UHGV virus genome: UHGV-0139558
Strand: one strand, 5' to 3'
DNA: 30,280 bases
Source of the DNA: a virus
The position numbers were made by a program, and so were the translations under genes. Shown here in pieces: positions 1 through 15,529 of the stretch (position 1 is the first letter of the stretch; each line of letters begins with the position of its first letter). Under the pieces are notes generated by a model that was given only the letters and a program-made list of their open reading frames with translations, did not search any database and was not told the DNA's origin.

Positions 1-945
1 AACGATAATTATGAAGAAGCTATAAACAGATTGATTGGCGAATACAATCACTTCTTTGTTCAAAGAACATTCATGGTTATGGTTAATACAATTTTAACAC
101 CGACTCTTAAGAGTGTCCATTATTTGCCAGCAAGTCGTTCGGGTTTGTATCAAGCTCTGAGTGCTTTTGGTCAAATAATTGCAGAGTTATCTAAGAATAG
201 ATCTTTCTTATCAAAAAAAATTGAATTGCCAAGTATATCTGAGCCTGTTAGTGATTACTTCATTAAGTTGTCTGATATTAGAGTTGTTAAACGGAACTAT
301 GAAGATAAGAAATTAAATATCCTTGCCAAAGAAATAGAAGATAAAATATTAGATGGTAGAGTGGAATTTAATCCACAGACAAAACAGCTTCTTTTTTATC
401 CTAATAATACAAATCTTAGATTAGAGTTGTCATCAACATCTTCGATGGTTTCAGAGTTGGCACCTATTGTATCATATTTAAGATACGTGCTTACTAAAGC
501 TGACGAATCGGGTATGAGACGCATCGGAAGCGGGGCTAGGGAATTCAAACGTCCAGAACCTAAACCATTAATTATGATTGAAGAACCAGAAGCTCATTTA
601 CATCCGGAAATTCAAATAAAATTAACAGAGATATTTGCAAAATTAATAGATGCAAATGTTAAACTTATTGTGACATCTCATAGTAATTTTATATTCAACA
701 AGGTTAATAATCTTGTGATTAAGAACACTGCTGAGAACTGCATGACAGGTATCCATAAAAATAATGTATCATCAGTAGTATTTAAAAAGACAGGAACAGG
801 AAGTGTTGCTTTACCGCTAGAAATTGATGAGTTAGGGATTGAGGATAATAACTTTGGCCCAGCTACGAATGAGTTATTTGATGAAAAGATGGATATCTTT
901 CAAACTATAAATGACGAAATGGAAGACGAGGATGGCAAAGAATGA
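1..945 (+). CDS. ABC-type (AAA_15/AAA_21-like) ATPase, C-terminal portion; the reading frame is open to position 1 so the gene starts upstream of the window
   Basis: Frame 1 is open from nt 1. Translation contains a Walker B/D-loop/H-loop block 'LIMIEEPEAHLHPE' typical of OLD/Abi-type ABC ATPases. AT-rich codon usage unlike the phage backbone. 4-bp ATGA overlap with the next gene. Confidence 0.6.
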   Translation, partial: NDNYEEAINRLIGEYNHFFVQRTFMVMVNTILTPTLKSVHYLPASRSGLYQALSAFGQIIAELSKNRSFLSKKIELPSISEPVSDYFIKLSDIRVVKRNYEDKKLNILAKEIEDKILDGRVEFNPQTKQLLFYPNNTNLRLELSSTSSMVSELAPIVSYLRYVLTKADESGMRRIGSGAREFKRPEPKPLIMIEEPEAHLHPEIQIKLTEIFAKLIDANVKLIVTSHSNFIFNKVNNLVIKNTAENCMTGIHKNNVSSVVFKKTGTGSVALPLEIDELGIEDNNFGPATNELFDEKMDIFQTINDEMEDEDGKE

Positions 946-1508
946 TCGAAAAAATTCTTGCAACTCCTGAGTTAACTGCTTTACTTCGTGATGAAGTCGA
1001 AGAAAATAATGTGTTTGTCAAATTGGATGCTGATTTTTATCAGGATAACGGAAAACTAGATTGCCAAAAAATAATCAATCTTTCTGTGGATTCATATTAT
1101 AATTCGCTTCGGTTGCCTATTACACCTCCTTCACCAGATAATATTTTAGTTATTAAGCGAGGGGATAATCGTTTTGCACTTTACATAATTGAGTTGAAGA
1201 ATGTTGCAAAAGTTTCCCGATTAGATGAAGAAAATATACGATGCAAGTATAAGACAGCAGTAGACGATTTCATGCAAGAGCGTTTTTCTGATAGTTTTTT
1301 AAAAGAAGATGTGAAAATTACTGATTTTAATATATGGATTGTATGTAATAGATTCTCTTTTTTAGGGAAAGAACTTACTGATGAACAGTATGCAAAAAAA
1401 GTAATTAATAATGGGGTTATGGAAAAGTTACTACTATCCAAACCTTATAGGTTTAGAGGTAAAATATCTCCTATAACTTTCCAGTTAAGTGGCTCTGAAG
1501 TGTGTTAA
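942..1508 (+). CDS. Hypothetical 188-aa partner protein, translationally coupled to the ATPase; possible PD-(D/E)xK-like nuclease core
   Basis: ATGA start/stop overlap with upstream ATPase. Motif 'GDNRFALYIIELKN' (D ... E-x-K spacing) resembles a restriction-endonuclease-fold active site. AT-rich. Followed by a hairpin terminator. Confidence 0.5.
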   Translation: MIEKILATPELTALLRDEVEENNVFVKLDADFYQDNGKLDCQKIINLSVDSYYNSLRLPITPPSPDNILVIKRGDNRFALYIIELKNVAKVSRLDEENIRCKYKTAVDDFMQERFSDSFLKEDVKITDFNIWIVCNRFSFLGKELTDEQYAKKVINNGVMEKLLLSKPYRFRGKISPITFQLSGSEVC

Positions 1509-1512
1509 AAAG

Positions 1513-1538
1513 TGAGGGGGAGTTTTCCCCCTCATTTT
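1513..1538. terminator. Bidirectional rho-independent terminator between convergent genes
   Basis: Perfect 8-bp stem TGAGGGGG / CCCCCTCA with 6-nt loop, T-run on the plus strand and on the minus strand; the int stop codon lies inside the right arm. Confidence 0.5.
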
Positions 1539-2662
1539 AATTCTAACTTATTCCAATCTTTTCCCCTGTCATCATGGTAACGATCGGTTTGCTGCTGGGT
1601 TTTATGGCCCAGCAGTTTTCTGGTATCTATCCCTTGCTCCTTGTAAAGGCGTTCAGATAAAGATCTTTGTTCATGAAAAGTTGCTGGAGTTCCAGTACCC
1701 CAATCAATTTTTGCCAGATCACGCGCCTTGCTAAAGTTCATCGTTAGTGTATTAGCTTTTACCTGTGCGCCACGTTCAGCCTGTGAGGTTGTGCGAAAAA
1801 AATGTACAAGATATGGACTGACAGCATAGTCACGGCAGCGGGCTACTACATCTCGCAAACTCCAGTTAATCGCATTGAGACGCAGGGAAAGCGGGATGGC
1901 GATTTTGCTCCCAGTTTTTTCCTGGATGACATGGAGATGATCATCCCAAATATCGCTAAATTTCATACGCGAGATATCACCTAACCTCTGACCGGTAACC
2001 AGTGCTAACAGCATGGCATTCCCCATATAACGATGACTGGCATCTGCGATATCAAAGATTTTTTGCCATTCTTCAAGGCTTAACCGTTGTCGGGTAATTT
2101 TTCTTCTGGGCTGTTTGGTCGCTAATGCTGGATTATAGCCAGGAGGGACCTCCCCATAGTGTTGTGCCTCCTTGAATACATCAATTAGAACGGAGCGGAC
2201 TACTTGCGCCATCCTCGGTTGTCCAGCAGTGATATACTCGTCAAGCAATTGTGCTATATCCCTTACATCAACGGATGAAATTAACTTCATTCCTGCTCGT
2301 TCCCTGAGCAAGGATACTGGTTTAGCTTTCTGTTTATAGGTGTTGAGCTTTATATCGCCACTTTTCAGTCTGTCATCCTGGATTGCTTGATAGCGATCTA
2401 ACCAGGTTGACGTTGTGATTGCTTTTCCTTTGCTGGTTGCGATCCTGTCACTGATAGCTAGAATCTGCCGGGTTCTTTGCTCAGCCAGGCGTGTATTGGC
2501 CTCAGTGGCAATAGCAATGGCTTCAGCTTCGTTTGTGCCCAAAGAATGAAACTTCCCGGTCACTGGATGCTTATATCGCCAATAGACTTTATTTACTTTT
2601 CTGCTATAGAGCGGATATAAGTTCGGGACTGAAACATTATTTTTACGTGGTCTGGCTGCCAT
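1532..2662 (-). CDS. int: Tyrosine site-specific integrase, lambda Int family
   Basis: 376 aa; N-terminal arm-binding-like region 'PNLYPLYSRKVNKVYWRYKHPVTGK', C-terminal catalytic region ending '...HEQRSLSERLYKEQ...LLGHKTQQQTDRYHDDRGKDWNKLELK' which parallels lambda Int (R-H-R-Y motifs). 20-bp overlap with xis as in lambda. Confidence 0.9.
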   Translation of the reverse strand: MAARPRKNNVSVPNLYPLYSRKVNKVYWRYKHPVTGKFHSLGTNEAEAIAIATEANTRLAEQRTRQILAISDRIATSKGKAITTSTWLDRYQAIQDDRLKSGDIKLNTYKQKAKPVSLLRERAGMKLISSVDVRDIAQLLDEYITAGQPRMAQVVRSVLIDVFKEAQHYGEVPPGYNPALATKQPRRKITRQRLSLEEWQKIFDIADASHRYMGNAMLLALVTGQRLGDISRMKFSDIWDDHLHVIQEKTGSKIAIPLSLRLNAINWSLRDVVARCRDYAVSPYLVHFFRTTSQAERGAQVKANTLTMNFSKARDLAKIDWGTGTPATFHEQRSLSERLYKEQGIDTRKLLGHKTQQQTDRYHDDRGKDWNKLELK

Positions 2663-2931: not shown

Positions 2932-3480
2932 TTAATTTCGCTGTCTGGATTGTTTATGTATCTTATGCAGCTCTTTAAAGCGTTCCATAAACATCCCGTA
3001 GGCATGGCCCGGTGCCAGTGGAATCACGTTGAACATCTCTGTTGCCGGGATGCCTTCCAGTACAGGCCAGAAAGAGCCATCATCAAGCCCGAGATCGCGG
3101 CGTTCGGTTGCCAGCATGATGAGATCGGCATATTTCACGGGCGTACTCATCACCGGGGGTAACCCGTATTTCTCACGGATCACGGCGTCTATTTTTTCTT
3201 CCATCTGTTTATAGTCAGGAAGAAGGCGTTTCAGTGGCGCGGGGATGTCCTGACAATAAGCTTCTGTTGCATCATGCATTAACGCTTCAAAAGCAAATTC
3301 CTGCGGTACCAGCTGGCTGCAAAGCACCGCATGTTGGGCGACGCTGTAGAAGTGTGAAAGATGTCCTGCAAAGCGACAGATATTTGAAAGGGAAACCGCG
3401 ATATCGTTAATAACGATGTCGTCTTTATTTATCTTGTCATAATAAAAATGCTTCCCGGAAAAAGTTTTAATAAATGACAT
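2932..3480 (-). CDS. HD-domain phosphohydrolase (YfdR-like prophage protein)
   Basis: Contains H...HD metal-binding signature ('HAVLCSQLV...ALMHDATEAY'). Start at 3480 has a GGAG RBS 7 nt upstream; the longer ORF start at 3510 has none. Confidence 0.65.
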   Translation of the reverse strand: MSFIKTFSGKHFYYDKINKDDIVINDIAVSLSNICRFAGHLSHFYSVAQHAVLCSQLVPQEFAFEALMHDATEAYCQDIPAPLKRLLPDYKQMEEKIDAVIREKYGLPPVMSTPVKYADLIMLATERRDLGLDDGSFWPVLEGIPATEMFNVIPLAPGHAYGMFMERFKELHKIHKQSRQRN

Positions 3481-3573
3481 TTTGTTCTCCACGTATATGT
3501 GCTGCGCCATACTGAATTTTGGTAAAAGGAAGCCCTCATCATCCGGCGATTATTGAGTTAATTACGTTTCCAT

Positions 3574-3595
3574 AAATGCCCCCGCAGGGGCATTT
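3574..3595. other. Perfect palindrome / hairpin between early-left genes
   Basis: AAATGCCCC-cgca-GGGGCATTT, 9-bp stem, 13 nt downstream of the stop of the 3608..4432 minus-strand gene. Confidence 0.4.
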
Positions 3596-3607
3596 GCAGT
3601 AATGAAA

Positions 3608-4432
3608 TCAGGCGCTGAAAGTACCAATGAAGGTTTCTACTTTGCTGTCTTTGAATTTCTCAACAAGCAGATCACGAAATTCGTTAGCCATTTCTTCCTG
3701 CACTGCTTCCAGCTGAATAATGCGCAGAACCAGTACAGGACGATCGCCAGTGATAATGCTGAGGCGTAATTTAAACGGACGTTCTTTCAGGCCTTCAAAC
3801 GGAACGCATTTAAATTCAAATGCCACTGGCATAATGTCTTTGGTCTTCGCTTCGACAGACTCCATCAGGGAGCGTTTGCCGCTGAAGTCATTATCTTCAA
3901 AATCAGCGGTCTGGTTTGCTTCAATCGTGATTTTACGGACTGCCGCAGCCGCTTTTGTTGCCTGAATGGCGTCACCATTAGCATCAAAGCCCACAAGGTA
4001 GTCGGCCCAGTCTTCAATCCATTCTGCCTGTGACTTCTGGGAGTTGCGCTCGCCGTTAACAGACAACAGAGCAGAGAACGGTGCTGTCTTTTTCAGTTTG
4101 AGAGTGGCGGTGTTATCTGCGTGACCTGGTTCATCAATAGTACCCAGGTTAAGCACACTGACGGCACGCATATTATCAGCATCGATAAAGCAGCGGGTGC
4201 CTTCATCTGCAAGATCTTTAGAATAACGGGTAAAGTCATCGATGCTGGCAGTGGAAAGCGCACCACGGAAACGGAAGCGATTTAAATTAAATTTTTCCAG
4301 ATCATGAATGCGGAAATTCTCAGGCAATGCCACAGCATCGGCACCAATCTTACTGATAATTTCATTAACACCCTGAGCAGAAATAAGGGCATGGATTTGA
4401 TTAATTGCGGTTGCGTCTAAGTTCTGAGACAT
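3608..4432 (-). CDS. Prophage early protein, DUF2303/YfdQ-like (function unknown)
   Basis: 274-aa ORF with GAGG RBS 6 nt upstream of ATG; sequence is recalled as resembling CPS-53-type YfdQ proteins. Family call from memory, not searched. Confidence 0.55.
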
Positions 4433-4497
4433 AATAAGTCCTCACTATATAAAGATATTCAGTGATGAGATAAATAATCAGTTTATTAATAACGATA

Positions 4498-4860
4498 TTA
4501 ATGACCTGCTGCGCGTAGTTTTCCGTCAGGCTCACCGGCAAGAGTCAGTAATTGTCCCTGGTCTTCCTGCAGAATAGTCAGGCGACCACCGCGATTGACA
4601 TACATCGGCGTTTCGGTGGTGTCTTCTTCGGAAATTTTCCCGCGGTTAGTCGGGCGAACATATGAGAGTTTGTGTTTGATTTTCACACGGTTCTCATCAA
4701 ATGGTTCGATTTCCAGGTTGAGTGAGACCTTACCTTTGGTTTTCGTGTTCATCACACCGGAAGCGACTTCACTGAGAACTGCGCCGATTTTGGTTTCAAA
4801 TACGCCGCCGTCCAGCTCCCCGATAAATGCCTGCACATCAGTACTGCGTTCGCTAGCCAT
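4498..4860 (-). CDS. Hypothetical prophage early protein (about 121 aa)
   Basis: Start set at internal ATG (4860) preceded by GAGGAG RBS; the 182-aa extended ORF upstream has Cys/Arg-rich low-complexity translation and no RBS. Confidence 0.5.
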   Translation of the reverse strand: MASERSTDVQAFIGELDGGVFETKIGAVLSEVASGVMNTKTKGKVSLNLEIEPFDENRVKIKHKLSYVRPTNRGKISEEDTTETPMYVNRGGRLTILQEDQGQLLTLAGEPDGKLRAAGH

Positions 4861-5331
4861 TTTGCTGCTCCTCATCATATCGACCCTGCAAGGTCGGTTG
4901 GTTTCTCCACAAAACAGAGAAGAACACCTGCGGTGGCAGCCGCCCGGATGGATTGGGTTATTAGCTCGTCGTCCGGTGATGCTCTTCTCTGTTTTGTAAA
5001 AAGAGCGGTACCAGCCGGAAGCAAGTGTACAAACTGGTACCGCCAAAGCAGTGGCTGTTGTGGTGACCGGTGCTGATCTCCGGCATGCGGTTATTTCAGA
5101 CTCTCACGGGCATTTAATTGCCCCGCCGAACAGCTCTTTTCTGCAATAGCTGCAATGTCTTTCGCGCATCAGCCTGCGCATTCACCACAACGCTAAGGAT
5201 TCTCTCTGGTTGAAAATACTTAGCTGTTATGTGCCTGCTTTTAGCCACATCAGGCGAGGTGGACCTGGTTATTCCCCAACAACAAGGATTCGGTTAATCT
5301 GGTTATCCCCAACAACGCAAAAGGAAAAGAA

Positions 5332-5766
5332 ATGTCCGGTAATATCTACACGTTGTACAAATCCCACTGTGAAAATGTTGGAAAGTATCGGGGCATTGAA
5401 ATCAGTGGGATAGTGTCATCAGTCGAAATAAGCAAAGTGGAATCAAGGGCAACATTACTTACTCTTCTGGATCTTGTCTTACATGAGCACCGGAAGAAAT
5501 TCGGCACTCCCTATAATCAGTTGAATGGGAAAAAGGCTCTGGTTCACCTTATTCTGATGAAGCATCACTGGATGCCAAAACAGATTAATGAGATGAAATT
5601 TGATGAACTTCTTCTTTCAATTCAGGATGAACTCACACTTGATAAAATAAGCGTAACCGCCCAGAAATTTTTAGATTATCGAGACTGGAGATCACAAATT
5701 CATCACTTTGATGATTTTGACGAAAATGAATGGGATCCTAATTTGTCTGCACAATATCTAAAGTAA
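5332..5766 (+). CDS. Hypothetical 144-aa protein, orphan gene oriented against the leftward early operon
   Basis: AGGA RBS 6 nt upstream of ATG; preceded by about 280 bp of noncoding DNA with direct repeats; 3' end overlaps the convergent 5738..5944 gene. Confidence 0.45.
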   Translation: MSGNIYTLYKSHCENVGKYRGIEISGIVSSVEISKVESRATLLTLLDLVLHEHRKKFGTPYNQLNGKKALVHLILMKHHWMPKQINEMKFDELLLSIQDELTLDKISVTAQKFLDYRDWRSQIHHFDDFDENEWDPNLSAQYLK

Positions 5767-5944
5767 CATCCTGTGATAAAACCGTGATTTCCTGATCCAG
5801 TTTTTTTAAGGAGTCTATTGTTTCCTGTCGATAAGACAGCACTTCACGAAGCTGGTTTATAGCTGCCAGCTTCTTTGTCATCCACTCATAAATTTCCTCA
5901 TCTGTGTAGCCAGGCGCGACGATTTTGGGTTCTGTTTTGTGCAT
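5738..5944 (-). CDS. Small hypothetical early protein (about 68 aa), first gene of leftward operon
   Basis: Start at 5944 preceded by GAGGAGGTG RBS; coiled-coil-like translation. Confidence 0.45.
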   Translation of the reverse strand: MHKTEPKIVAPGYTDEEIYEWMTKKLAAINQLREVLSYRQETIDSLKKLDQEITVLSQDVTLDIVQTN

Positions 5945-5992
5945 TTCACACCTCCTCAAGTTATCAGTTACTTGTTGATGGGGACCAGATTG

Positions 5993-6016
5993 TTAAAGAG
6001 CTAAGCGTCCTGTAGG
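5993..6016 (+). terminator. Candidate rho-independent terminator (plus strand)
   Basis: Stem AGCGTCC / GGGCGCT (one G-U wobble) followed by TTTTTTGTTG. Confidence 0.4.
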
Positions 6017-6099
6017 GCGCTTTTTTGTTGCTAACGAATCATCCTGGACTTCATATGCCCCAGGCGGCTACTTCGTGGGTGTCCTGCCTGTTCGTTGTC

Positions 6100-6160
6100 T
6101 TAACACCTTTAAGTTGTAATTTAGTTGTGGTTTTGAATGTTGTCAACAACTTTATGTGGT
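6100..6160. promoter_or_regulatory. Left operator region (OL-like) with repressor half-site repeats
   Basis: Motifs AACACCTTTAAGTTGT and CAACAACTTTATGTGG share the half-site ACAACTT/AAGTTGT with the cI-cro intergenic region. Confidence 0.5.
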
Positions 6161-6209
6161 TTGAACGAGTAGCCAAGGAGTGCAAGGATTATCAAAAAAA
6201 GGAGGTTGT

Positions 6210-6593
6210 ATGGAAGACGCGCTTTACGCTTTTAATTACACACAGAACCGGGACAAGTTATTTGCTAACTTGATTAGCATCATTGATGGAATCATTGCAG
6301 ATGGAGTTGTCCGTGAAGAGGAGGTTCTTTACTTAGATACATGGTTACTTGAAGCAAAGCAGATTATCAATAATGGAGTTATAAAAAGTCTATCTGCTCG
6401 GGTGTCGGATATTCTTGCGGATGGAATAATCACATCAGAAGAACGTGATGACCTTAAAAATAGCCTTCTCCAAATACAGAGGGAAATTCTTGATATCCCT
6501 GAAATTGATTTTTACTCCAAGGATGTAGATGTCCATTTACTTAATGGACTATGTAAAGGATTAATTGCTGATCGGAACTTAACTCAAGAATAA
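6210..6593 (+). CDS. TerB-like domain protein (about 127 aa)
   Basis: AAGGAGG RBS 6 nt before ATG at 6210. Two 'ADG-h-h-x-EE' motifs ('IADGVVREEEV', 'LADGIITSEER') as in TerB-family helical domains. AT-rich. Confidence 0.5.
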   Translation: MEDALYAFNYTQNRDKLFANLISIIDGIIADGVVREEEVLYLDTWLLEAKQIINNGVIKSLSARVSDILADGIITSEERDDLKNSLLQIQREILDIPEIDFYSKDVDVHLLNGLCKGLIADRNLTQE

Positions 6594-6632
6594 ATAAGAT
6601 ATCTTAATTGGTGGCTTGAGCAAAATGGAGCT

Positions 6633-7100
6633 TTGAAGAACAACTACCCAGGAAAAAAACTTTATGCACTTGTAAAGGAAATTCTTAAAGATGGTGTTAT
6701 TACTGAAGATGAGAGTTTAACTCTACATAAGGCATTAGTAGACTTCACAGGATGTGACTTGGAAAGTGGGGTGGTGGATGGTTTGGCGACCAGGCTGCCT
6801 ATTGATGTAGGGGCTTCGATAGAGTTAGAGGGTAAAACCTATTGTCTTACAGGCACTTTTGTTGCAGGAAAGAGAGCCGTAGTTGAAAATTTGATTAAAA
6901 ATGCTGGTGGGAACATCAGTAGTGGAATTACTCAAAAGTTGGATTTTTTAGTAATTGGGACGCTTTCCTCCCGTGATTGGAAATTCTCTAGTCACGGAAG
7001 GAAGATCGAAAAGGCTATATCTTATAGGGATGATAATGGTGCAAAACTTAAAATTATTTCTGAAGAAATGCTTTTCGATGCATTACCAAGTTCGCGATGA
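6633..7100 (+). CDS. BRCT-domain protein with N-terminal TerB-like half-motif; same frame as upstream ORF, separated by one TAA
   Basis: C-terminal 'GKTYCLTGTF...GKRAVVENLIKNAGGNISSGITQKLDFLVIG...ISEEMLF' matches the BRCT pattern of LigA C-termini. Listed ORF starts at TTG; frame is open back to the TAA at 6591. Confidence 0.5.
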   Translation: MKNNYPGKKLYALVKEILKDGVITEDESLTLHKALVDFTGCDLESGVVDGLATRLPIDVGASIELEGKTYCLTGTFVAGKRAVVENLIKNAGGNISSGITQKLDFLVIGTLSSRDWKFSSHGRKIEKAISYRDDNGAKLKIISEEMLFDALPSSR

Positions 7101-7769
7101 CCAGAATACCCTACCTATAACATGAATTCTGGCTCGTCTATCTTCAAAGGTGAGTATTTCATCTGGGTACTCATCTTTGTTGAAGCTTCTAAGAATCAAG
7201 CCACCGTCAGGTAAGTTGATAAGTATTTTAACCCTTAGCAATACACCATCTCGTACGGCATAAAGATCGCCATCACGAATAGGAACGGTTTGAGAAATAT
7301 CAACGGCAACAAGATCTCCATTATTGAGAACCGGTAATAAACTGTTCCCCCATATTTGTACGATCTTGGCATTAGATGCACATACGCCAGATTTTCTCAA
7401 ATCTGCTCTTCTTAACGGAAACCAGTCAATAGCTGATTCAACTATTTCAGCCAGACATCCGTTACCTGCCGATAACTCGACATCTAAAACAGGAATGTTT
7501 ACGAAAATATCGGGGTCTAATGCGGTGCTTTCTGCTTCTTTTACAACAAGATCAGGTATGGATGCGTTGTCTTCAATACCAAGTTGTAACCACTTTTGTG
7601 ATACACCTAAAACTTTTGCAATTTCTTTAATTTTGCGCGGTTGTAGAGTTTCGCCATTCTCTATTTTGGCTACAGATTGTTGTGAAAGTCCAATTTTTTC
7701 AGCTAGTTGAGCTTGGCTCATGCCAGCTTTCTCTCTACCTATCTTTAATCGTTCTGCCAGTGTTTTCAC
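7083..7769 (-). CDS. cI: CI-like prophage repressor (HTH_XRE + S24 LexA-like peptidase domain)
   Basis: N-terminal HTH 'MSQAQLAEKIGLSQQSVAKIENGE'; C-terminal S24-like fold; GTG start with AGAGGG RBS; divergent from Cro-like gene across operator repeats. Confidence 0.85.
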   Translation of the reverse strand: MKTLAERLKIGREKAGMSQAQLAEKIGLSQQSVAKIENGETLQPRKIKEIAKVLGVSQKWLQLGIEDNASIPDLVVKEAESTALDPDIFVNIPVLDVELSAGNGCLAEIVESAIDWFPLRRADLRKSGVCASNAKIVQIWGNSLLPVLNNGDLVAVDISQTVPIRDGDLYAVRDGVLLRVKILINLPDGGLILRSFNKDEYPDEILTFEDRRARIHVIGRVFWSSRTW

Positions 7770-7796
7770 AACATATCCCTCTCTTTTTTGATGAGG

Positions 7797-7885
7797 TTAC
7801 AACTTTATGTTTTAGCTTTCCAACACCTAAAAGTTGTGGTAAAAGTTGTTAATGTTGTATTCTTGCAGCTCGTAACAACTTAACT
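7797..7885. promoter_or_regulatory. Right operator/promoter region (OR-like; pRM/pR expected here)
   Basis: Repeated half-sites ACAACTTTATGT, AACACCTAAAAGTTGT, AAAAGTTGTTAATGTTGT, GTAACAACTT between divergent cI and cro. Confidence 0.55.
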
Positions 7886-7904
7886 ACCAAAAAAGGAGAA
7901 AGCT

Positions 7905-8153
7905 ATGACACCTGAGCAATTAGCCTTATCGGAGGCAATCGCTCTGGCTGGTGGTCAATCAGAATTGGCTCGGAAGCTCACAGCCAGCAGCGGTCATTTA
8001 GTAAAGCAACAACATGTCTGGAACTGGTTGAACAGAGAAAAGCGTCCCCCTGCAAAGCTCTCGATATTCATTGAAAAGACCACTGGCATATCAAAAGAAA
8101 AATTACGTCCAGATATTTTTCAAAAGATTAAAGATTCATCAGATGAAAAGTAA
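7905..8153 (+). CDS. cro: Cro-like / YdaS-family HTH regulator
   Basis: 82 aa, GGAG RBS; 'AGGQSELARKL...' HTH; position immediately right of OR, divergent from cI. Confidence 0.7.
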   Translation: MTPEQLALSEAIALAGGQSELARKLTASSGHLVKQQHVWNWLNREKRPPAKLSIFIEKTTGISKEKLRPDIFQKIKDSSDEK

Positions 8154-12702: not shown

Positions 12703-13698
12703 GTGACCGTGAGAGCACTACTGACCCCTGAAATTGCCCCGCGTATGGGGATCGTATTGTTCAGGCCAGGTTCAGAGCTGATGCCTCTGTTTATGCAGGG
12801 GCGTGTCCTGCTGGAGCCTGAGCCGGAACGTTATTCATCTTTCGCCAGTGGTGCCGTTCCCGCGGCATCACAACCGCTGGCGGATGATCCTGCCGTTCGG
12901 GCCGTGTTCCGCAATGAGGTAGTGATCCGTCGTGCTGGTGGCGTGGAATGTCTTGAAAGCTGGTTACTTCGTGAAAAAGGCTGCCAGTGGCTTCATTCCG
13001 ACTGGCACAGCGAGAACATGACCACAATGCGACACGCGCCGGGCGCAATCCGTCTGTGCTGGCACTGCGATAACCAGTTGCGCGATCAGTTCACGGAACG
13101 GCTGGAATCAATGGCAACGGATAACTGTGCCCGCTGGGTGTTGTCTGTCGTGCGTCTGGATCTCGGTTTTGATGATAGTCACGTTGTGACAATGCCGGAA
13201 CTGTGCTGGTGGCTGATTCGTAATGACCTGGCGGATGCCTTACCGGAAAGTGCAGCCCGTAAGGCACTGAGATTACCGAAGCCTGTTGTGCCATCTGTCA
13301 CCCGGGAAAGTGACCTTGTGCCTTCAGTTCCTGCCACCAGCATCATCCAGGATAAAGCGAAAAAGGTGCTGGTACTGAAAGTGGATCCGGAGTCGCCGGA
13401 GTCTTTTATGTTACGCCCCAAACGTCGCCGCTGGGTTAACGAAAAGTACACGCGCTGGGTTAAGACACAGCCGTGTGCATGTTGTGGAAAGCCTGCTGAT
13501 GATCCCCACCACCTGATAGGTCACGGTCAGGGTGGAATGGGTACAAAAGCGCATGACCTCTTTGTGTTGCCTTTGTGCAGAAAGCATCACGACGAGCTGC
13601 ATGCGGATACCGTGGCATTTGAAGAGAAGTATGGCTCCCAACTGGAGCTGATATTTCGTTTTATCGATCGCGCGCTGGCGATTGGTGTGTTGGCCTGA
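12703..13698 (+). CDS. DUF968 (YdfU-like) protein with C-terminal HNH-like Cys/His cluster
   Basis: 331 aa; C-terminal 'CACCGKPADDPHHL...CRKHHDELH'; GTG start near GAGG. Confidence 0.65.
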   Translation: MTVRALLTPEIAPRMGIVLFRPGSELMPLFMQGRVLLEPEPERYSSFASGAVPAASQPLADDPAVRAVFRNEVVIRRAGGVECLESWLLREKGCQWLHSDWHSENMTTMRHAPGAIRLCWHCDNQLRDQFTERLESMATDNCARWVLSVVRLDLGFDDSHVVTMPELCWWLIRNDLADALPESAARKALRLPKPVVPSVTRESDLVPSVPATSIIQDKAKKVLVLKVDPESPESFMLRPKRRRWVNEKYTRWVKTQPCACCGKPADDPHHLIGHGQGGMGTKAHDLFVLPLCRKHHDELHADTVAFEEKYGSQLELIFRFIDRALAIGVLA

Positions 13699-14081: not shown

Positions 14082-14116
14082 GGTTGCACAGGTTGGCCCC
14101 ATATGAGGCCAACCTG

Positions 14117-14578
14117 TCACAAGTGGGGGAAGATTTTTCGTAACACTAACCAACACCTTCCGAAGGTATATAGCGAAATTATAAGGGAGGATAAGCCTAA
14201 CAGTATGAATAGGAAATCAATAGGTTTGCCCGCAACAATAACATCATCTGGTAGAAACATCGCTATCAATGGAAATATACATGCGACGATGAGAGTTAAC
14301 CCTGTTGAAAGTAATCGATTTACCAGAGTTGGTAACACGTTGTTTTGCTTAAGGGCATTAATTGCTCCTTCCTTATCGCTGTTTGCACTACTAAATATAG
14401 ATATTGCAGCCAGAACAAAACCAAACAGGATGCCTGATATAGTCGAGAGCACCCCCGCTGTTGTGAGTACGTCAGCATGCTTCATCGGTTTAAACAGTTT
14501 TGTCGCTGCATAGGTCAACAGAATCCAGAGGACGCATTTCCAGAGAAAAGTGGCTAATTCTCTCATTGTGTCCTCCAT
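14117..14578 (-). CDS. Polytopic membrane protein (4 predicted TM helices), second gene of cargo operon (candidate membrane effector)
   Basis: Hydrophobic stretches 'FLWKCVLWILLTYAATKLF', 'VLTTAGVLSTISGILFGFVLAAISIF', 'LSTGLTLIVACIFPLIAMFL', 'IDFLFILLGLSSLIISLYTF'. Confidence 0.55.
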   Translation of the reverse strand: MEDTMRELATFLWKCVLWILLTYAATKLFKPMKHADVLTTAGVLSTISGILFGFVLAAISIFSSANSDKEGAINALKQNNVLPTLVNRLLSTGLTLIVACIFPLIAMFLPDDVIVAGKPIDFLFILLGLSSLIISLYTFGRCWLVLRKIFPHL

Positions 14579-14587
14579 GCTTGGTTA

Positions 14588-15529
14588 TTAGTCTCTGCTA
14601 GCGAGCTCATACTGTGCAAGATAGTTCGCGTTATCAATTTTAGCAGATATCATCGCCGTTCTGATATCAGAATCGGATGGATAACCGCTTTTGACAATGA
14701 TTGTCTTTGTACTGACCAATACTTGGTCAAGTAGACTTTTGGGCGTTCTATTGGATGGCTCTGTTACATCAATTTTTTTAATTTTTAGACCTCCAGAACC
14801 TTTTGGAAAAAGTTCAAGTAGTTCCTTAATAGCATCGGTGACAGAAGTTTTTAGATAGTTAAAACCTTGTTTTTTCGGGCGAATCCGACCTCGCATATTT
14901 AATCTTAGATGCGACCCGCCCATACCAACAACCATGTCAATAATTTCATTAGCTAAAGGGTTTTTAATCTTATAATTAGCTTTGTTAAAGTTTCTTGGAG
15001 CAGCAACTATAAGATCGAAACTACGTAGGATATTTCCGTCCTCAAGCAGTTCCTTCATGCTCTCTTGTTTCCAAATGGCTTCAAAAGTGACGCTTTTTAA
15101 ATCAGTTTTGTTATACAAAATGAATGCCAGATCATTTACTTTGGGCCCTATATGGTTGAGGGTCATAGCTAATAAGTCCGTTTCGTAGTAATAGATAAAA
15201 TATGTTCTTTCAACTACAGAATCTTTATCATTTAAAGGAATTGTTCTCTCACTACCTGTAGCATCCTCGATGAACGGTAGTAGGCATTCCCTTCTCCACG
15301 ATACGTAACCAAAGTAACATTGCAGTGTGGTATCTTTTTGAAGAATAACTAACTTTAACCCTCGATTTGGGGTGTCTGTTGTGTAAGTTATTGGAAAAGT
15401 TACAGTATCTGCTGTGGTCATTTGCTCAAAGGCTAGTTTTGCAGCAGATGTGCCATCTTTTTTGCTTCCATTACCAGTGAAAAAACCAACTCTCACTCGC
15501 CTAGTTTTATTCTTATTTTCTGTACTCAT
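14588..15529 (-). CDS. Hypothetical 313-aa soluble protein, first gene of reverse-oriented AT-rich cargo operon (candidate defense/exclusion component)
   Basis: Long ORF in a locally AT-rich segment between Q and the holin gene; no recognisable catalytic motif; 9-nt gap to downstream membrane gene. Confidence 0.55.
   Translation of the reverse strand: MSTENKNKTRRVRVGFFTGNGSKKDGTSAAKLAFEQMTTADTVTFPITYTTDTPNRGLKLVILQKDTTLQCYFGYVSWRRECLLPFIEDATGSERTIPLNDKDSVVERTYFIYYYETDLLAMTLNHIGPKVNDLAFILYNKTDLKSVTFEAIWKQESMKELLEDGNILRSFDLIVAAPRNFNKANYKIKNPLANEIIDMVVGMGGSHLRLNMRGRIRPKKQGFNYLKTSVTDAIKELLELFPKGSGGLKIKKIDVTEPSNRTPKSLLDQVLVSTKTIIVKSGYPSDSDIRTAMISAKIDNANYLAQYELASRD

Follow-up and report, generated by a model that had tools for sequence, protein, structure and literature searches.

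Operons which pair an ABC ATPase with a small PD-(D/E)xK nuclease are already known from two validated anti-phage systems, WonAB and PD-T4-4. A comparable pair of genes was analysed here in UHGV virus genome UHGV-0139558, a stretch of 30,280 nucleotides which as a whole is referred to as the window. The pair lies at the start of the window beside the integrase gene intE and consists of an ATPase gene, of which the window holds the 3' part, and a gene for a partner protein of 188 amino acids (aa). With a probability of roughly two in three, it is a two-gene anti-phage system, probably acting by abortive infection, which is carried as accessory cargo (a 'moron') of an e14-like E. coli prophage integrated at icd.

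WonAB, from the WASA-1 prophage of Vibrio cholerae, requires both genes for defence, as well as residues K34, R182, E300 and H333 of WonA and K71 of WonB (PMC12137116). It causes a lysis-independent abortive infection after phage DNA replication has started, without bulk DNA degradation, and WonB is lost when WonA is inactive (PMC12137116). The authors of that paper relate WonAB to PD-T4-4 and to the operons described as 'OLD-ABC ATPase + novel REase' (restriction endonuclease) by Krishnan et al. 2020 (PMC12137116). PD-T4-4, located on an element of E. coli resembling an integrative and conjugative element, was validated against phage T4 (Vassallo et al. 2022; PMC9519451), and its proteins purify together in a higher-order complex (PMC9519451; bioRxiv 10.1101/2025.07.10.664194).

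The ATPase

A preliminary description of this DNA, made from the sequence alone, had placed the start of the window inside an AT-rich gene. Frame 1 of the + strand is indeed open from base 1 to a stop codon at 943-945, in a cassette of 31% G+C. The complete gene, recovered from E. coli strain ARS-C101 (L001:7422-8945, L001 being the E. coli locus), encodes 507 aa, so that the window lacks the N-terminal 193 aa including the Walker A lysine K33. The Walker A motif GQNSIGKS itself was found at residues 27-34 of the full-length protein, upstream of the window.

The full-length ATPase matched Pfam family AAA_15 from end to end with 81.3 bits (cut-off 32.1) and AAA_21 with 53.4 bits (cut-off 27). 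The 314-aa fragment in the window also exceeded both gathering cut-offs (AAA_15, E = 3.4×10−14, 53.7 bits; AAA_21, E = 3.1×10−11, 44.3 bits) and its match is therefore not due to chance. Conservation was assessed in an alignment of 35 family members, on which all statements of invariance for this protein are based. Residues G27, N29, G32-K33-S34, LPASRSGLY (235-243), IEEPEAH (386-392) and H420-S-N were invariant, and Walker A, Walker B with the catalytic Glu (I386-E387-E388) and the H-loop histidine H420 are thus conserved throughout the family. The initial assignment to the OLD/Abi-type ABC ATPases is upheld by these domains and motifs; of the 'Walker B/H-loop block' then described, the Walker B part holds, together with a D-loop region, and the H-loop lies elsewhere, in the TSHS sequence further downstream (Table 1). 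The LPASRSG block corresponds to 'IPAGRS' of the WonA homologues, and WonA R182 would by its position fall within it.

A word-indexed search of 5.8 billion proteins yielded a subfamily of 460-507-aa proteins sharing 39-72% identity over 98% of their length, with members from Enterobacterales, Aeromonas, Vibrio, Desulfobacterota, bacteria of the candidate phyla radiation and many metagenomes. An AlphaFold2 (AF2) model of the Enterobacter orthologue (72% identical; predicted local distance difference test, pLDDT, 82; predicted template modelling score, pTM, 0.85) combines an ABC head, into which a large insert of helices and beta strands is built, with a C-terminal extension made up of a beta-hairpin (strands 448-464) and a long helix (479-505). 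By analogy with the C-terminal extensions of WonA, this extension is a candidate docking surface for the partner. The nearest solved structures were PtuA of Septu and the retron I-A effectors (Foldseek E = 1×10−10), followed by Rad50 (E = 1×10−8); TM-scores of the structural relatives ranged from 0.3 to 0.5, those of PtuA and the retron I-A effectors from 0.34 to 0.48. At the sequence level the best relatives in the PDB, PtuA and an OLD-family nuclease, reached only 23-34 bits.

Among the PADLOC models, AriA (93 bits), PD-T4-4_A (82), NsnB (79) and PDC-M47A (71) matched at the level of motifs only. Compared with the 794 bits of a genuine PtuA, these scores place the ATPase in no named defence ATPase family; the product of the first gene is an OLD-type/ABC-3C ATPase outside all of them. 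The SMC_N match was weak (25 bits) and those of transporter, RecF and RecN models were marginal (16 bits or less). A housekeeping ABC transporter subunit or SMC-type (structural maintenance of chromosomes) protein, which the preliminary description had named as the outcome opposed to its own reading, was rejected on the transporter, RecF and RecN scores, on the lack of a transporter context, on the foreign G+C content and on the occurrence of the gene in just 8 of 5426 E. coli genomes.

The partner protein

The second open reading frame (ORF) has the 188 codons originally reported and belongs to a real, conserved gene. A word-indexed search with its product gave 14 clusters; an exhaustive profile search of 1.84 billion cluster representatives gave 258 homologues at E≤10−3, of which 219 at E≤10−10. 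The homologues listed are stand-alone proteins, mostly of about 165-205 aa, with some shorter and probably partial ones. The partner had no match in the Pfam, NCBIfam, PHROGs or PADLOC models and none by tblastn in INPHARED phages or PLSDB plasmids, and its family profile had none among PDB sequences at E≤10.

In an alignment of 59 diverse members, D50, E84 and K102 were invariant, D66 and P62 were each present in 58 members and Y53 in 57. Position 86 is Lys in 37 members and Arg in the other 22. The conserved motif reads S-P-D66-x17-E84-L-K86, with a gap of 16-19 residues between D66 and E84 in 57 of the 59, and K102 follows 15 residues after position 86 in 47. The PD-(D/E)xK-like motif noted at the outset was therefore retained in the form PD-x17-ELK, beginning at D66. 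The Asp of the 'D-x9-ELK' first proposed is D75, which is separated from ELK by eight residues and is an Asp in 16 of the 59 sequences.

The AF2 model of the partner, a confident one (pLDDT 85.7, pTM 0.84), begins with a small beta-meander (19-47), followed by a short helix bearing D50. D66 starts strand 67-72, E84 and K86 end strand 77-86 and K102 is situated in the next helix (96-114). The modelled arrangement of D66 and E84-x-K/R86 is that of the canonical PD...ExK topology. The partner is likely to have a restriction-endonuclease fold whose acidic constellation is intact. This predicted fold, in which the acidic residues and lysines are conserved where they would be expected, supports the nuclease-like character first ascribed to the partner. 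The alternation of Lys and Arg at the ExK lysine, combined with an invariant K102, suggests a non-canonical placement of the basic residue.

The same data bear on a different explanation, in which the partner, built on a degenerate REase scaffold, is non-catalytic and binds nucleic acid or serves as an adaptor, and the complex with the ATPase works by binding or clamping DNA, by consuming ATP or by recruiting a host factor. Such a subunit would account for Arg at position 86 in 37% of the members and for the weakness of the fold matches, but the (near-)invariance of D50, D66 and E84, together with an invariant K102 that follows ExK by 15 residues in 47 of the 59, would be difficult to account for in a protein with no catalytic role. 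Moreover, a low-probability profile alignment puts these motifs in register with those of WonB/'novel REase', whose Lys is essential (see below). A non-catalytic partner is accordingly regarded as improbable.

Operon structure and linkage of the two genes

The ATGA overlap between the stop codon of the ATPase gene and the start codon of the partner gene, preceded by a GAGGA Shine-Dalgarno sequence, agrees with the translational coupling proposed earlier. Most other intact loci checked (L002, L005-L007, L010-L015 and L017) likewise have an overlap, of 4 to 14 bp. A member of the ATPase subfamily was located directly upstream of the partner homologue in all 16 testable loci, the E. coli locus included, and 15 of these are intact; a Treponema locus was left out of the count, as it begins at a contig end. 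All second genes of the tested loci scored 198-217 bits against the partner profile.

The linkage spans Gammaproteobacteria, Desulfobacterota, Spirochaetes, Clostridiales and Bacteroidota. Linked loci were found in Aeromonas, in metagenome-assembled genomes (MAGs) of a deltaproteobacterium, a spirochaete, a member of the Clostridiales and one of the Chitinophagales, in Serratia (two loci), Vibrio, Desulfolutivibrio, Enterobacter and Pectobacterium, and on two metagenome contigs. In two of these MAGs, the deltaproteobacterial one and that of the Clostridiales, the ATPase frame is broken into two parts. On ERZ25039478 contig_15574, an IS3-family element (HTH_Tnp_1 and rve; L016:8470-10397) follows codon 35 of the partner gene, both halves of which are still detected next to an intact ATPase gene. 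By this insertion the putative nuclease has been inactivated in nature. The nonsynonymous divergence (dN) of the Enterobacter copy from that of E. coli is 0.22 in the ATPase and 0.27 in the partner; no dN/dS ratio is given, since synonymous sites are saturated. Rfam and tRNA scans of the window found no hits.

Genomic context of the cassette

The two genes form a cargo cassette with a G+C content well below the 50% of the remaining window. Upon comparison with MG1655 by BLASTN, homology ends at L001:7354 and resumes at L001:9552 (window position 1552), the cassette taking the place of the 3.2-kb C0293-ymfD-ymfE-lit segment of K-12 prophage e14. According to megablast, eight of the 5426 complete E. 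coli genomes contain positions 1-1600 of the window with an identity of 99.9%, all eight with the annotation 'AAA family ATPase | hypothetical protein | intE'. An intE-type integrase is present in about 503 of the 5426 genomes, and the cassette (at least 99% identity) in these eight only. In both E. coli and Enterobacter, icd is followed by the ATPase and partner genes, by intE and xisE on the − strand and then by a complete prophage. As e14 of K-12 begins inside icd, the pair is situated about 330 bp inside the left end of the prophage, between attL and int.

The contents of this slot were surveyed in nine other sampled E. coli prophages and in K-12. K-12 itself carries Lit, the classical T4-exclusion (abortive infection) peptidase which cleaves EF-Tu. 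Two strains carry a Septu system, consisting of PtuA (794 bits against the PtuA model) and an HNH nuclease. Further cargo sets are a 569-aa ATPase with a Dam methylase resembling PD-Lambda-5_B (361 bits), a TrlF-family ATPase with a 389-aa protein, proteins of 1040 and 156 aa (two strains), a pair of 271 and 142 aa, and a three-gene set of unknowns beside an integrase remnant (two strains). The slots of the ten strains held eight different gene sets, only three of which were recognisable as defence systems; of the unknown sets, the 1040-aa and 156-aa pair and the three-gene set were scanned with PADLOC and gave no match.

Most of the linked loci lie in prophages or adjoin toxin-antitoxin genes. 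Outside E. coli, the Enterobacter copy also resides in an e14-like prophage and the Vibrio copy adjoins a prophage integrase. In Serratia the pair is a moron of a lambdoid prophage, between the replication genes and nin-like genes; it is found beside AbiEi in Pectobacterium and beside RelB/YafQ and HicB in Desulfolutivibrio. This distribution and these contexts are the signature of mobile, defence-type accessory cargo, in agreement with the first description of a defence pair next to an integrase: a prophage carries the pair as mobile cargo, at a site where known defence genes are found in other strains.

The neighbourhood of these pairs also bears on an addiction module of toxin-antitoxin type, in which a nuclease toxin held in check by the ATPase would stabilise the prophage or island by post-segregational killing rather than sense phages. 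The loss of WonB upon inactivation of WonA indicates that ATPase-nuclease pairs can act as regulator and toxin, RelB/YafQ, HicB and AbiEi genes adjoin homologous pairs, proximity to int and att suits the maintenance of an element, and a nuclease gene disrupted by an insertion sequence is what would be expected of a costly toxin. Against this, the e14 slot holds bona fide phage-exclusion systems (Lit, Septu) and not classical toxin-antitoxin pairs, and large ABC ATPases are atypical as antitoxins; a pure addiction role thus has a small chance of being correct. Such behaviour would also be compatible with abortive-infection defence, the two not being mutually exclusive. A role in the phage life cycle, as a RecF/SbcC-like ATPase and nuclease for prophage recombination, replication or packaging, would fit the weak matches of the Rad50/SbcC/RecF class (SMC_N 25 bits; Rad50 structures at Foldseek E = 1×10−8) but is very improbable, as the pair occurs in only 8 of about 503 intE-type E. 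coli genomes while the slot is filled by unrelated genes in sister prophages of the same backbone, its G+C content is foreign, it is located outside the early and late operons and it is also found in chromosomal contexts other than phages.

Two observations were made on the prophage around the cassette. The gap between icd and the ATPase gene contains three direct TTATCAA repeats (L001:7322-7358), in a segment which K-12 e14 also has, immediately within the left end of the prophage; these repeats may serve attL as arm-type sites for the binding of IntE. In its early region (about 3500-8000), the window differs from the otherwise near-identical prophage of ARS-C101 (L009), for instance by a DUF2303/YfdQ-family gene (3608-4432, − strand) and extra small ORFs, which indicates mosaic recombination among e14-like prophages with the same cargo cassette.

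Table 1. Features of the ATPase-partner operon and adjoining genes in the window.
Feature	Position	Strand	Evidence and remarks
C-terminal part of OLD-type ABC ATPase (314 codons + stop)	1-945	+	ORF/translation; full protein WP_024246526, 507 aa
LPASRSG, Q-loop-equivalent block, aa 235-241	124-144	+	Invariant in 35/35 family members
SMVSE, degenerate ABC-signature-like block, aa 341-345	442-456	+	S341, M342, V343, S344, E345 invariant
LIMIEEPEAHLHPE, aa 383-396, Walker B (E387/E388) and D-loop region	568-609	+	I386-H392, H394, P395 invariant
TSHS, aa 418-421, H-loop (H420)	673-684	+	H420, S421, N422 invariant
ATPase C-terminal extension, aa ~440-507	739-942	+	G460, G472, D475, N477, F478, L485, E488 invariant
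GAGGA Shine-Dalgarno (928-932) and ATGA stop/start overlap (942-945)	928-945	+	Sequence; translational coupling
Partner protein, 188 aa, predicted divergent PD-(D/E)xK (restriction-endonuclease-fold) protein	942-1508	+	WP_024246527; ORF, family alignment, AF2
Partner codon D50	1089-1091	+	
Partner codon D66	1137-1139	+	
Partner codon E84	1191-1193	+	
Partner codon K86	1197-1199	+	
Partner codon K102	1245-1247	+	
Bidirectional terminator between the partner gene and intE, GC-rich hairpin TGAGGGGGAGTTTTCCCCCTCA flanked by T/A runs	1513-1534 (L001:9513-9534)	both	Terminator scan
Window part of the 2.2-kb cargo cassette, 31% G+C (L001:7355-9551)	1-1551		BLASTN breakpoints, G+C content
intE, lambda-type tyrosine integrase, 376 aa, convergent	1532-2662	−	Arm-DNA-bind_1 2e-37, Phage_integrase 2e-16; RefSeq
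xisE, excisionase	2643-2903 (ORF list); 2643-2888 (RefSeq)	−	ORF list, RefSeq annotation

Proposed mode of action

The preferred reading of the pair as a phage-defence system draws on the protein families, motifs and predicted folds, on the linkage across phyla, on mobility and on the defence-rich variable slot observed here. OLD-family ABC ATPases act as dimers or higher oligomers, and in the mechanism proposed the ATPase oligomer would be the sensor and regulator, and the effector would be the product of the translationally coupled gene, a small, divergent and putative PD-(D/E)xK nuclease. As WonAB, PD-T4-4, Septu and PARIS suggest by analogy, the two proteins would form a complex in which the ATPase probably keeps the nuclease inactive or stabilised, perhaps on its C-terminal extension. 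A cue from a heterologous phage would change the state of the ATPase and license cleavage of a nucleic acid, either DNA or RNA/tRNA. Phage development would then be halted, probably with growth arrest of the infected cell, which would protect the lysogen population and with it the prophage.

Several points weigh against this interpretation. The ExK lysine is an Arg in 22 of the 59 partner members, which is unusual for active PD-(D/E)xK enzymes. The partner is matched by no PADLOC model, and the ATPase, at 93 bits or less on shared motifs only, falls far short of the 794 bits of a true PtuA. A sigma-70 promoter scan upstream of the ATPase gene gave nothing convincing above background. The association with a prophage cargo slot fits toxin-antitoxin or other accessory functions as well, and a defence function of this family is so far suggested by sequence, models and context.

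A broader proposal would be that the pair founds an unnamed, phylum-spanning defence family with a non-canonical REase effector, and that the icd-intE slot is a defence hotspot. This is put forward tentatively, its chances being somewhat below even. Some 260 clusters of partner proteins at 50% identity would make up the family, a single ATPase subfamily accompanying them throughout, and the effector would combine E-x-K/R, the invariant helix lysine K102 and an added N-terminal beta domain. As for WonAB, its target might differ from bulk DNA, for instance RNA or tRNA, the cleavage of which would abort infection. If so, the icd-intE slot of e14-family prophages, which about 9% of the complete E. 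coli genomes possess, would rank with the P2/P4 hotspots and several of its cargo sets would lie beyond the recognition of any current model.

If validated, the pair would add a family to the growing class of anti-phage systems composed of an OLD-type ABC ATPase and a REase-fold protein. A third example, independent in sequence, would help to tell the essentials of the class (a C-terminal docking surface and a D/D/ExK/Lys constellation) from incidental traits, and the attL-to-int slot of e14-like prophages would offer a compact and readily mined cargo site. The practical impact is modest: a known theme is extended and none is opened, and the pair is a good candidate that will not surprise the specialist.

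Other genes of the window

Two ORFs on the − strand, 14117-14578 (153 aa) and 14588-15529 (313 aa), had no Pfam or PADLOC match. They are located between a Q-antiterminator-like gene (about 14103-14513, + strand) and the lysis genes (from about 16156), a classic lambdoid moron slot, and may therefore be a second cargo or defence candidate of the prophage. In the early region, a 155-aa protein (6633-7100, + strand) contains a BRCT domain (Pfam 26.4 bits, cut-off 21.3) and weakly matches PADLOC model PDC-S48 (21.5 bits); its gene adjoins that of a CI-like repressor (7083-7769, − strand; HTH_3 and Peptidase_S24). A YfdR/YfbR-like HD-domain 5'-deoxynucleotidase is encoded beside xis (2932-3510, − strand). 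In the nin-like region, a gene at 12703-13698 (+ strand) encodes a DUF968 protein whose nuclease domain resembles HNHc_6. Both are common lambdoid accessory genes.

Comparison with known systems

Compared with WonAB, PD-T4-4 and the other systems treated below, what is new in this locus is the protein families and not the architecture. The 'new pairing' considered in the preliminary description is overstated as far as the type of pairing is concerned, which had been validated before in WonAB and PD-T4-4. Neither the WP accessions nor an e14/icd hotspot turned up in literature searches.

A close parallel is WonAB, which is also a prophage-borne two-gene operon with the ATPase gene first and a small nuclease gene second. 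Both ATPases are of the OLD type, with an EEPEAHL Walker B, an (I/L)PA(G/S)RS block and a THS/SHS H-loop, and the small partners share a variant PD-(D/E)xK core, a predicted one in the present pair, with the motif order vD, (C/P)D, ELK and a polar residue in the next helix in profile alignment. Homologue sequences of WonA and WonB were taken from the supplementary tables of PMC12137116, in which those of WonA are partial (about 430 aa). Against these partial sequences, phmmer gave 27-34 bits for three of four WonA homologues, over short motif-centred stretches, and nothing reportable for the fourth. The ATPase studied here, of about 507 aa, appears longer than WonA, the Walker B Glu lying at 387/388 as against E300, which implies larger inserts.

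The small partners were compared as profiles. A search with hidden Markov models gave no significant match between the partner and WonB/novel REase, and hhalign of the 59-sequence partner profile against an eight-sequence profile of the latter gave a probability of 18% (pairwise E = 1.3×10−3). In this low-probability alignment, D50, D66, ELK and K102 of the partner are in register with vD, CD, ELK and a conserved Gln, which points to a remote superfamily link at best. The partner (188 aa, against about 143-190 aa) further differs in its additional N-terminal beta-meander and its YYNS and TPPS motifs. Diagnostic peptides and WP accessions of the pair were absent among the WonAB homologues listed in the accessible supplementary tables of PMC12137116.

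PD-T4-4 likewise combines a P-loop/ABC ATPase and a PD-(D/E)xK nuclease in two genes. By PADLOC, the 82-bit match of the ATPase to PD-T4-4_A is partial and best over the Walker B/H-loop segment, and PD-T4-4_B gave none with the partner at E≤1. Septu and the PtuAB proteins of retron I-A provide the nearest solved ATPase structures and follow the same logic of ATPase and nuclease, and Septu occupies the identical icd-intE slot. PtuB, however, is an HNH nuclease, and the partner matches neither HNH nor PtuB; the ATPase reached 33.5 bits where the NCBIfam cut-off for PtuA is 500.

In PARIS (AriAB), Gabija (GajAB) and P2 Old, an OLD-family ABC ATPase is also coupled to a nuclease. These systems unite an ATPase sensor with a nuclease effector, are often cargo of prophages or satellites and act by abortive infection. 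Their nucleases are of the TOPRIM type (fused in Old and GajA, DUF4435 in AriB), unlike the partner described here. No TOPRIM or DUF4435 domain was detected in either protein, no GajB helicase was found and the interval from icd to intE holds the two genes only; the statement made at the outset that the partner resembles neither HNH nor TOPRIM nucleases thus stands. The PADLOC models of AriA, to which the highest ATPase score belongs, are effectively generic AAA_15/AAA_21 profiles. Lit of K-12 e14 shares the attL-to-intE cargo slot and the prophage family but is an unrelated peptidase, with no similarity in sequence or mechanism.

Membership of PD-T4-4, Septu, PARIS, Gabija, Menshen (NsnB) and PDC-M47 was accordingly rejected. 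The PADLOC check suggested earlier gave matches for the ATPase at motif level, up to 93 bits, and none for the partner, and for Septu, PARIS and Gabija membership fails because the type of partner differs, with neither HNH, TOPRIM nor helicase present. Since similarity to WonAB and PD-T4-4 is weak or confined to motifs while the architecture is the same, the pair is placed with these two systems as one that would work in the same manner, as a member of neither.

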